A DNA stretch of 24,000 bases. Origin: Variovorax sp. OK212 (GTDB taxonomy: Bacteria > Pseudomonadota > Gammaproteobacteria > Burkholderiales > Burkholderiaceae_C). Within the stretch, counting starts at the first letter, position 1, and every line of letters begins with the position of its first letter. Positions 11,061 to 13,520 of this stretch are shown one piece after another. Below the pieces are notes generated by a model. That model was given only the letters and a program-made list of their open reading frames with translations. It was not told where the DNA came from and ran no database searches. The stretch lies in assembly GCF_900112425.1 (NCBI RefSeq), contig NZ_FOLP01000001.1:696082-720081 (forward strand), written 5' to 3'. The translations under genes were made by a program, and so were the position numbers.

Positions 11061-13520
11061 TCAGTAGCTCAGCTGTTTGGTCGACTCGACGTGGCGGTCC
11101 ACGTCGGCCGGCGTCAGCGCTTCGCTCTTGCAGCCGAAGTCCTTGAAGAGCGTCATCTGGTCGGCATAGTGCGCCGATTTGCGGCCGTCGGGTGCGACGA
11201 AGCCGCTCTGTCCGGGCGGTGCGGCGGTGCACAGCGCGACGCCGTTGGCACCGAGCACCACCTTGTCGTTCTGCGAGCCGCGGTTCATGAAGCTCGGCAG
11301 CGTGAGCAGTTCGTCGGCGCTGGCCTGCGGCGCGCCGATGAAGTTGCTCGTGAGGAAGGCGTGCTTCACCACGGGGGTGCGCCACTTGGCGGTGTCGCTG
11401 CCGTAGCGCTTCTGCAAGTCGGCCATGGCTTCGGTGAGCGTGGCGCGCAGCACGGCGTTCTTGTCCTTGCCGTTGAAGAAGTCGTAGGTCTGCGGCACGC
11501 CGGCCTTGGGGCCGAGCAGTGCGTTGTAGACCAGCTTCAGCCCGTTGCCGGGGCGGATGCTCGCGACCTGCGTGGCGTTGGCATAGCCGTTGCCCGCATA
11601 GGCGGCGAACACCTCGGGCGGCAGGTCGTCGGCCAGCACCGTGCGGTAGAGGATGGGCAGCCACGTCATCATGAGCGTGGTGGCCGGGCTGTCGTAGACG
11701 CCGCGCTCGGCCGGGTCTTCGTTCAGCGCGTTCCAGCCGGCCAGCATCTGCGCGGCGCGGCGCGCGGGGTCGGCGGGGCGCAGGTTGCGCGTGGCCTCGA
11801 CCGCGAACGGCACGATGTAGCGCGCGTTGGTGTCGGCATAGGCCGTGGTGCGGGTCAGGCCCCACAGTTCGTCGGGCGTGAGCTTGGGCTTGGCTTCGAG
11901 CCGCGCGGTGAATTCACGCACGCGGTCGACCACCGAGTAGTTGCCGCCGTCGCTCACCGCGCCGGGTGCCGACTGGTTGTTCCAGTTGGCGACGTAGCCC
12001 TGCGCCGGGTTGTAGGTCTTGGGGTCTTCGCCGAAGGGGCGGATGCCCAGCCACTCCATCGAGCCGTCGCCCACCGCGGGCAGGCGGATGTCCTGCGAGG
12101 CGGGGCGCAGCGGCAGGCGGCCGGGCGACACGTAGCCGATGTTGCCGCTGGTGTCGGCGTAGTACCAGTTGATGGTGATGGCCACGCGCGAGGCCTGCTT
12201 GAGCCACTGGTCCCAGTTCTGCGCCTGCATCGAGTGGATCCAGCCGAGCAGCGATTCGAGCTCGTAGCCGTCCCAGCTGCGCTTCATCGAATAGGCGGTG
12301 CCGTTGGGAATGTCGAAATTGGTGACGATGCCGTGCACGGTGGCGTACACGTCCACGCTCTGGTCGGGCTGGCCCTTGACCTTGATGACCTCGGTGCGTT
12401 GGGTCATCGGGCGCATGGCGCCGTTGAACAGGTACTCGTGCGGGTTGGCCGGGTTGAGCTTCTCCTGGTACATGTCGTTCACGTCCAGCGGCCCTGCGGT
12501 GGCGCCCCAGGCGATCTTGCCGTTGGTGCCGAACAGCACCACGGGGTGCGCGAACGGCGTGTTGCCCGTCACGTCGAAGCCCGCGCCGTGCAGGCCGATG
12601 CCGAACACATACGAGGGGTTGAACCAGTTGAACTGCGGGCCGTTGATGAAGACGGTGCTGCCGTCGGTGGTCTTCTTCGGGCCGGCGATCCAGAGGTTGC
12701 TGGCGATGGGGCGCGTCCACGGCTGGGCGACGCCGCGGCGTGCGGCGTCGGTCTCGTTGCGTGCGACCAGCAGCTCCGGCGACACCGCGGCGAGCTGTGC
12801 AGCGTGCGCGGCCGTGGTGCCGGCGGGCGCGAGTTGCGCCGCGGCGGTGGCGGTGGTGCCCGTGCGCGGCACGGTGGTCGGCGCGAGCGGGTCTTCGACC
12901 CAGCGGATCTGGTCGAACAGCTTGCGGCCTTCGATGTCGCCGCGCGCCTTGCGCAGCTGCTCCAGCAGGCGCAGGTTGGCGACCTCGCTGCTCACGTTGG
13001 AGTAGCGGTTGGCCATGGTGCCGACCCAGATCATGGCCACGTCGTAGCCGGTCCAGTCGGCCTTGGGCATGAAGCCGGCGTCGTTGTATTCCTTGGGCAG
13101 CAGGGTGGCGGGCGCGGCCAGCACTTCCTTCACGCGGGCGTTGAAACCGGCGGCATAGCCGTCGAAGATGGCCTTGTCGTCGGGCGACAGGCGCGCCATC
13201 TGCGCGCGGATCGAGTCGGGCGTGAAGCTCGCGCGGCTGCCCTGGTCGAGCGTCACGTACTTCGGCCCCATCACTTCCGACACCGTGCCCAGCACCGCGC
13301 GGCGCGCCATCTCCATCTGGAACAGGCGGTCTTCGGCGACCGCGTAGCCGAAGCCATGGAACAGGCCGCGCACGTCGTTGGCATACACGTGGGGCACGCC
13401 GTAGGCGTCACGCTTGATGGTGACCTTGCCGACCGGTGCGGTGGGGGTGGAGGTGGCGGCGCAGCCGGCCAGCGCCACGGTGACGCAGGCGAGGGCGATG
13501 CTTCGGAGGCTCGATGTCAT
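11061..13520 (-). CDS. pac: Penicillin G acylase family Ntn-hydrolase precursor (signal + alpha + spacer + beta), predicted lipoprotein
   Basis: 819 aa, collinear with E. coli PGA as I remember it. Alpha-chain motifs: [11 protein letters not shown] and VGTMANR. Ala/Thr-rich spacer. Beta chain starts at Ser274 (codon 12701..12699) with SNLWIAGP...GPQFNW, followed by [32 protein letters not shown] and APGQSGF. The N-terminus [20 protein letters not shown] carries a lipobox, LAGC. Confidence 0.9.

Follow-up and report, generated by a model that had tools for sequence, protein, structure and literature searches.

A penicillin G acylase gene within the paa cluster

We analyzed a 24,000-nucleotide stretch of DNA from Variovorax sp. 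OK212 (contig NZ_FOLP01000001.1, positions 696,082 to 720,081), referred to here as the window and numbered from its first nucleotide. At 11061–13520 its minus strand carries one open reading frame (ORF) of 819 amino acids that encodes a penicillin G acylase (PGA)-type penicillin amidase precursor, a homolog of pac. The gene lies in a co-directional 16-kb minus-strand cluster for phenylacetate catabolism with the order paaG-I-K-PGA-paaABCDE-ABC transporter-paaZ. It begins 38 bp after paaK and ends 40 bp before paaA on the same strand, a consensus scan found no terminator-like site on the minus strand of the paaK-PGA and PGA-paaA gaps, and the RNAs of these gaps are no more stably folded than shuffled sequence (z = −0.15 and +0.92). 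Strand, spacing and the lack of terminator-like structures had been described in an earlier note made from the same DNA, and the scan and the folding agree with that description. The features of the acylase gene and of the cluster that holds it are as follows.

11061–13520, minus strand: PGA-type penicillin amidase precursor (pac homolog); PF01804, and best PDB matches are penicillin G acylases
13461–13520, minus strand: signal peptide; predicted lipoprotein anchor at its lipobox L-A-G-C (Cys20); regular expression [LVI][ASTVI][GAS]C at residues 17–20
12864–13460, minus strand: alpha-subunit region, residues ~21–219; E. coli/Kluyvera alpha chains, E 1e-62 to 1e-63
12702–12863, minus strand: spacer (linker) peptide, residues 220–273, between the aligned alpha and beta chains
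11064–12701, minus strand: beta subunit from nucleophile Ser274 (bS1); 3k3w_B, E 1.6e-164
15345–16148, minus strand: paaG-like enoyl-CoA isomerase/hydratase, first gene of the operon; TIGR02280 at 329 bits, just under the cutoff of 345; PF00378
14883–15341, minus strand: paaI thioesterase; TIGR02286 at 152 bits, cutoff 119
13559–14869, minus strand: paaK phenylacetate-CoA ligase; TIGR02155 at 703 bits, cutoff 646
10010–11020, minus strand: paaA; TIGR02156 at 531 bits, cutoff 280; strong AAGGAGAA ribosome-binding site
9717–10013, minus strand: paaB; TIGR02157; gene call on identical contig; start overlaps the paaA stop (ATGA)
8915–9706, minus strand: paaC; TIGR02158
8385–8903, minus strand: paaD; gene call with PF23451 Zn_ribbon_PaaD on identical contig
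7286–8371, minus strand: paaE reductase; TIGR02160 at 457 bits
6093–7238, minus strand: LivJ-type periplasmic substrate-binding protein of an ABC importer; PF13458, E 1.5e-47
2276–5966, minus strand: remainder of the ABC importer, comprising livH (4938–5966), fused livM-livG (3004–4941) and livF (2276–3007); PF02653, PF00005, PF12399
64–2124, minus strand: paaZ, aldehyde dehydrogenase and MaoC hydratase fusion, last gene of the cluster in the window; PF00171, PF01575
16201–16214, no strand assigned: PaaR-type operator ACCGACCGTTCGGT between the divergent paaG and paaY, overlapping a −35-like hexamer, TTGACC
16318–16947, plus strand: paaY-like hexapeptide-repeat protein, divergent from the operon; translation, tblastn conservation beside paaR, and a faint Hexapep Pfam match on identical contig
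17021–17704, plus strand: TetR-family regulator, presumed PaaR; TetR_N, TetR_C_24; position beside paa clusters conserved

The Pfam profile PF01804 (Penicil_amidase) covers the ORF at full length, with residues 32–808 matching profile positions 1–674 of 675 (E 1.1e-131, 441.6 bits), and the best matches in a PDB search are PGAs of Alcaligenes faecalis, E. coli, Kluyvera and Providencia (E ~1e-141 to 1e-204). A single-chain PGA derived from E. coli (7reo) reaches E 1e-203; the A. faecalis beta chain 3k3w_B is the closest solved beta chain (E 1.6e-164), and the beta chains from Providencia, Kluyvera and E. coli follow at E 1e-141 to 1e-147. D-succinylase (E 3e-54), cephalosporin acylase (E 4e-24) and the acyl-homoserine lactone (AHL) acylase PvdQ (E 3e-16) lie far behind, the E-values of PGAs being better than those of the solved AHL and cephalosporin acylases by more than 100 orders of magnitude. 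By tblastn, the protein is 41–48% identical to the E. coli and Paracoccus PGAs. An identical protein is present on Logan contigs of run SRR4235201, and the G+C content of the gene agrees with that of its neighbors in a window of ~70% G+C. From these comparisons we conclude that the ORF at 13520–11061 is, as far as sequence can tell, a true penicillin-G-acylase-type enzyme of the S45, Ntn hydrolase family; the earlier note had described an 819-residue ORF collinear with PGA, and the full-length Pfam match and the alignments to solved PGAs bear this out.

Two other assignments were rejected. An AHL acylase of the PvdQ/QuiP type would have to match the NCBIfam PvdQ model NF051460, whose cutoff is 950 bits, but the match here reaches 82 bits and takes in only the N-terminal 130 residues. 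Placement in a non-PGA clade of family S45, which the earlier note had considered, is at odds with that low model score and with the ranking of solved relatives, among which PGAs are by far the closest (3k3w_B at E 1.6e-164, PvdQ at ~1e-16).

Active-site residues and precursor architecture

In the numbering of E. coli/Kluyvera PGA, with a and b denoting the two chains, alignment to solved PGAs shows conservation of the nucleophile and of the residues of the oxyanion hole and catalytic support (bS1, here S274, bQ23, bA69, bN241 and bR263), of the Ca2+ site (aE152, bD73 and bD76) and of aR145 in the alpha chain. The phenylacetyl pocket, which in E. coli PGA structures consists of aM142, aF146, bF24, bF57, bS67, bW154 and bI177, is identical at five of seven positions (aM142, bF24, bF57, bW154 and bI177) and changed at two (aF146 to Y and bS67 to A). 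The tyrosine at the aF146 position (Y172) is a conservative replacement and is found also in 1kec, the best-scoring E. coli alpha chain. The bS67A change, together with bF71P, is common to the window protein and the active, phenylacetyl-specific A. faecalis PGA. Both cysteine positions of the A. faecalis disulfide are likewise matched, by C764 and C797, whose equivalents form a stabilizing disulfide in that enzyme. The position of bN388, which in E. coli PGA contacts the carboxylate side of penicillin, is occupied by R661 inside a SIRPGNG motif that is also the consensus of a 16-sequence alignment of the clade. The motifs quoted in the earlier note, INWYYAD among them, are present except for the last, which reads PPGQSGF; the quoted APGQSGF is the E. 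coli/Kluyvera form.

The ORF is collinear with solved PGAs throughout, beginning with a signal peptide and continuing through an alpha chain (alignable over residues ~32–219), a spacer, and a beta chain that opens with the nucleophilic serine. The beta chain aligns over residues 274–817 and opens with SNLW, S274 lying opposite bS1 of every solved PGA. The spacer, ~54 amino acids long and similar in length to its E. coli counterpart, is expected to be removed by autoproteolysis. By pattern match, a lipobox (VALAG|C, with Cys20) closes the N-terminal hydrophobic signal. LAGC is kept in the Variovorax-type members of our alignment A1, and the Comamonas testosteroni member (P0027) has A-A-G-C, which is off-pattern. 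Characterized PGAs are soluble periplasmic proteins, and the lipobox at Cys20 suggests that the window enzyme may be a natural variant tethered to the membrane in the periplasm.

Insertion at the paaK-paaA junction

We retrieved 80 metagenomic loci through PaaA, 35 of which were informative in having enough upstream DNA and paaK upstream of paaA. In 32 of these 35, paaK directly adjoins paaA with gaps of ~11–158 bp; this group includes a locus (L082) whose PaaA is 96% identical to that of the window. One informative locus (L081) holds a PGA gene between paaK and paaA, and two hold other inserts. Because close relatives that lack PGA have paaK abutting paaA, the comparison indicates that the acylase gene is an insertion into an ancestrally contiguous paa operon, polymorphic among near relatives. 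We found no mobile-element signature near the gene: apart from short matches expected by chance, neither direct nor inverted repeats flank it, and there are no mobile-element genes and no GC anomaly. The borders of the insertion show no recognizable similarity to the uninterrupted paaK-paaA spacer of L082, hence no spacer duplication was seen.

Other genes occupy the same junction elsewhere. In a metagenomic locus with a Comamonadaceae-like paa operon (L099, from Ga0123338_10004189; locus positions 3990–5989), it holds a gene for a signal-peptide-bearing Peptidase_S9 protein of ~665 residues (prolyl oligopeptidase family, E 2.5e-39), and in another (L156) it holds paaJ and an enoyl-CoA hydratase gene. 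The junction thus seems to take accessory genes. The gene for the LivJ-type binding protein also follows paaE/paaR in several PGA-free relatives for which enough downstream DNA was available (for example L088, L090 and L092); since the ABC system occurs without PGA too, the importer is not specific to the acylase.

A PaaR-type operator and expression of the cluster

The operator upstream of paaG, ACCGACCGTTCGGT, is the sole exact match to ACCGNNCGNNCGGT in the 24-kb window. In Burkholderia cenocepacia, the inverted repeat ACCGACCGGTCGGT in the paaA promoter is needed for repression by PaaR; mutating the repeat abolishes repression, and a mutant of the TetR-type PaaR is constitutive (PMC2770484). 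On the strength of this operator and of its context, the TetR-family regulator at 17021–17704 is presumed to be PaaR. Other operator-like sites in the window are one-mismatch matches, at 6039 and 21152, and fall within chance expectation; the first (ACCGCGCAACCGGT, 6039–6052) lies between the binding-protein gene and livH and is probably not functional. The motif occurs once, upstream of paaG, in each Comamonadaceae PGA-bearing locus examined, and it is also found in most PGA-free relatives, L088 having no exact match.

Between paaG and paaA the window scan found neither an operator nor a promoter-like site, and a consensus scan across 5–18 kb found no sigma-70-like minus-strand site that could serve PGA or paaA as a promoter of its own. 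Since no such site separates paaG from paaA, expression of the epoxidase genes paaABCDE would need read-through of the acylase gene, and apparently it depends on transcription passing through it. The earlier note had placed the acylase physically within the paa operon, and with the only exact operator upstream of paaG and nothing promoter-like before paaA, the scans point the same way.

In Paracoccus and Ensifer the operator stands in front of the acylase itself. In Paracoccus denitrificans DSM 413, in two other Paracoccus species and in Ensifer, it precedes the PGA start by ~60–150 nt and again overlaps a TTGACC hexamer; in one P. denitrificans locus (L067, 9850–13250), the operator TTGACCGACCGAACGGTTAAC is ~65 nt ahead of the start. 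The presence of an operator validated in B. cenocepacia directly upstream of PGA in these genera lends independent support to the proposal, also made in the earlier note, that the enzyme may be induced through PaaR. A PaaX-family gene begins 4 bp downstream of PGA in the P. denitrificans loci (L067, and PD1222, our L162, at NC_008688.1 307534–310867). The P. denitrificans PGA unit thus combines a TetR-type operator with a GntR-type PaaX.

Recurrence of acylase-paa linkage across species

We surveyed PGA homologs in one genome per GTDB species, examining 80 loci of at least 274 PGA matches, and scored linkage where at least two paa genes lay within 10 kb of the PGA homolog, the Paa proteins of the window being mapped by tblastn. 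Linkage was found in 22–23 of the 80 species loci, which represent three PGA clades and five arrangements, so that the synteny survey proposed in the earlier note shows pac within paa clusters to be recurrent.

Variovorax spp., Comamonas odontotermitis and several metagenome-assembled genomes (MAGs): paaG-I-K-PGA-paaABCDE, the same as the window; PGA 76–90% identical
Herbaspirillum: paaI-PGA-paaK
Collimonas: paaK-PGA-paaJ
Amaricoccus: paaE-paaZ-PGA-thioesterase-paaY
Paracoccus and Ensifer: PGA, ~2.4-kb interval, paaABCDE; the P. denitrificans interval holds a PaaX-family regulator and paaJ

In a neighbor-joining tree, the paa-linked PGAs fall in three separate clades, and the Herbaspirillum enzymes are nested within the Comamonadaceae clade. 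The Herbaspirillum PGAs (L004, sp. CF444, and L006, H. lusitanum; PGA at 10001–12418) are 82–85% identical to the window PGA, far above their PaaK (71%) and PaaA (65%). Because the acylase is nested in the Comamonadaceae clade and is 84% identical when PaaK is 71% and PaaA 65%, the best reading of the Herbaspirillum loci is that the acylase gene passed laterally between paa clusters. On plasmid 1 of P. denitrificans PD1222, the RefSeq annotation has on one strand a "penicillin G acylase" (PDEN_RS23960), a PaaX-family regulator, a thiolase, paaABCDE and paaZ. By tblastn, no paa linkage within 10 kb was found for the Marinobacter, Rhodococcus, Arthrobacter, Kocuria, Achromobacter and Paenalcaligenes homologs. 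A PGA homolog of 44% identity is present in Acinetobacter baumannii X4-300 (L163, NZ_CP064203.1 1383341–1385722), the sole A. baumannii record examined, and no paa genes lie within 16 kb of it; this 3.97-Mb record was filed in a plasmid collection, and its size suggests a chromosome.

Discussion

The conservation of the catalytic apparatus, the position of the gene and the recurrence of the linkage raise the question of what the acylase does for the pathway that surrounds it. We think it likely that the gene encodes a functional PGA, exported, lipid-anchored, auto-processed and controlled by PaaR, that releases phenylacetate from phenylacetyl amides for catabolism by the cluster. The gene would be transcribed from the PaaR-controlled promoter upstream of paaG, and the protein would be exported, probably lipid-anchored via Cys20, and would process itself to alpha and beta chains. 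In the periplasm the enzyme would hydrolyze phenylacetyl amides to free phenylacetate, candidate substrates being phenylacetyl-amino acids, phenylacetamide, and penicillin G or its breakdown products. The LivJ-type ABC system of the cluster is the probable importer of phenylacetate, which PaaK would convert to phenylacetyl-CoA for degradation by PaaABCDE, PaaG and PaaZ. By analogy to other PaaR and PaaX systems, phenylacetyl-CoA would be both substrate of the pathway and inducer, and so would induce its own supply enzyme.

Several points weigh against this proposal. Enzymes of the PGA clade, Kluyvera PGA for one, also cleave medium-chain AHLs, and the physiological substrate cannot be read from the pocket alone. 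The changes on the leaving-group side relative to characterized PGAs, bN388R and aF146Y, may mean that specificity differs. The lipoprotein call for the acylase is a pattern match only. A promoter may lie inside the 3′ part of the gene, beyond the reach of a sigma-70 consensus scan. The PGA start has no recognizable Shine-Dalgarno sequence in any Comamonadaceae locus (13521–13558 in the window; L001, L003, L007–L012 and L081), and paaA, 40 bp past PGA, retains the strong AAGGAGAA; translation of the acylase may be weak or coupled by another route. Lastly, 57 of the 80 PGA loci are not near paa genes.

The same clade membership would suit an enzyme dedicated to catabolism of penicillin G or benzylpenicilloate, with fungal benzylpenicillin as its substrate and the cluster as a penicillin-eating module. 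Soil bacteria direct penicillin into the paa pathway by way of an amidase, and expression of bla and pga enables E. coli W to use penicillin for growth (Crofts 2018, as summarized in PMC11446756); a 15-gene "PEN" region around pac in A. baumannii AYE was described in 2008 as serving penicillin catabolism (PMC2265553). The put operon of penicillin-catabolizing Pseudomonas sp. ABC07 (Crofts 2018) resembles the window in that an amidase step supplies phenylacetate to the paa pathway (summarized in PMC11446756), but it is reportedly an operon of its own that encodes a beta-lactamase and an MFS importer and is induced by penicillin, not by phenylacetate. The put-type organization of bla, MFS transporter and amidases is absent here, and no beta-lactamase is found among the ORFs annotated in the window. 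Variovorax, Herbaspirillum, Collimonas and Ensifer are, moreover, often associated with plants or the rhizosphere. Plants provide phenylacetyl-amino acid conjugates (PMC12369477), and with these considerations on the other side we regard a dedicated penicillin module as unlikely.

A main role as an AHL acylase in quorum quenching, for which the paa-operon position would be incidental, can draw on the membership of AHL acylases in the S45 Ntn-hydrolase family, on the growth of Variovorax on AHLs and on the cleavage of C6–C8 AHLs by Kluyvera PGA. Against it stand the poor PvdQ model score (82 bits against 950), the distance to PvdQ structures (~1e-16 against 1e-164 for PGAs), the conserved aromatic phenylacetyl pocket and the independent recurrence of paa linkage; AHL cleavage also yields a fatty acid, which is unrelated to the surrounding pathway. 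We judge such a role very improbable. It is less probable still that we are dealing with a neutral or selfish insert, whether silent, decaying or expressed on its own, that is uncoupled from phenylacetate catabolism. Its polymorphism among close relatives, with L082 lacking PGA, and the missing Shine-Dalgarno sequence speak for such an insertion, but the ORF is intact with all catalytic residues present, it is kept at 76–90% identity at the same site in several Variovorax and Comamonas species and MAGs, and it has neither flanking repeats nor mobile-element genes and a GC content like that of its neighbors. A silent insert bearing a terminator would furthermore sever paaABCDE from the only operator-bearing promoter, and independent linkages, some with a PaaR operator of their own, are found in other lineages.

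To our knowledge, pac of E. coli W is unlinked from the paa genes. The regulatory tie between them that the earlier note mentioned is confirmed solely through a review, according to which PaaX binds the pga promoter and phenylacetyl-CoA releases it (PMC9493321). The window enzyme shares with the E. coli W PGA its family, architecture, ~54-residue spacer, phenylacetyl pocket and Ca2+ site, and the association with a phenylacetyl-CoA-responsive paa repressor described in that review would be shared as well. It differs in lying inside the operon, in a cluster with a TetR-type PaaR and its operator instead of the GntR-type PaaX, and, as a protein, in its lipobox (the E. coli form being soluble in the periplasm) and in aF146Y, bS67A, bF71P and bN388R. 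The A. faecalis PGA (3k3w/3ml0) has the closest beta chain, with bA67, bP71 and both disulfide cysteine positions in common, but it retains bN388 where the window PGA has arginine. We know of no lipobox in that enzyme, and, unlike in the window, no paa gene comes within 10 kb of the acylase in its sampled relatives (Paenalcaligenes, Achromobacter and Pandoraea loci).

Among the linked loci, that of P. denitrificans PD1222 is instructive in that its PGA (47% identity) is co-directional and contiguous with the paa genes, as in the window, and the nearly identical locus of DSM 413 has a PaaR-type operator just upstream of PGA. Unlike the window, PD1222 has PGA as the first gene of the unit with a PaaX-family gene next, and its enzyme, which lacks a clear lipoprotein signal, falls in another PGA clade. 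The B. cenocepacia system (PaaR, BCAL0210, with a 15-bp inverted repeat) corresponds to the window in the operator core ACCGNNCGNNCGGT at the promoter and the TetR-type regulator beside paa (PMC2770484), but its paa genes form three units, each with an operator and none with a PGA, whereas here a single operator would serve one long unit.

PGA is among the most used industrial enzymes, yet debate about what it does in nature goes back to the early 1990s. That it scavenges phenylacetyl esters and amides is an old hypothesis (PMC9493321; PMC2265553), for which PaaX regulation in E. coli W has been the main support. To this our survey adds comparative-genomic support in the form of repeated recruitment of PGA into paa clusters, in some cases with a PaaR-type operator directly in front. 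The functional link between PGA and paa was already known from PaaX in E. coli W, and the arrangement itself is plainly visible in the annotated PD1222 genome. Our literature search, which did not extend to most subscription journals, found no report of a PGA inside a paa cluster, the closest being the "PEN" region of A. baumannii AYE (PMC2265553). Relative to the searchable literature, the physical integration in the operon, its recurrence across lineages, control through a TetR-type PaaR operator and the lipoprotein form, all as predicted here from sequence, appear to be new. The arrangement reported in the earlier note is confirmed, and its interpretation finds support in every part that sequence analysis can address. 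The existing hypothesis is thereby strengthened and made easily testable, P. denitrificans PD1222 and Variovorax isolates (the insertion being present, for instance, in sp. ZS18.2.2 and IB41) being tractable organisms for the purpose, and a naturally lipid-anchored PGA variant is predicted; understanding of the enzyme and the pathway is unchanged, and a specialist would not be surprised.

We also entertain, with considerable doubt, a broader speculation, namely that the paaK-paaA junction of Comamonadaceae paa operons acts as a docking site where secreted feeder hydrolases can replace one another (the lipoprotein PGA in the window, the S9 peptidase in L099), and that in the rhizosphere this PGA clade natively strips phenylacetate from plant auxin conjugates of phenylacetic acid (PAA) such as PAA-Asp, PAA-Glu and PAA linked to other amino acids. 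PAA-Asp, PAA-Glu and further amino acid conjugates are widespread in plants (PMC12369477). If the speculation were true, bacteria would both feed on and modulate the second auxin of the plant, and PGA would gain a defined natural substrate.

Other genes in the window

Within the importer, the livM-type permease and the livG-type ATPase are fused in one 645-residue ORF (3004–4941, minus strand) with BPD_transp_2, ABC_tran and BCA_ABC_TP_C domains. The genes beyond paaR, from 17694 to 23448, appear unrelated to the cluster. They comprise an SDR gene (17694–18497, minus strand), a second TetR regulator (18629–19204, plus strand), a minus-strand set of MoxR AAA ATPase, DUF58 and BatA-vWA genes (19211–22370) and a trypsin-like peptidase gene (22405–23448).

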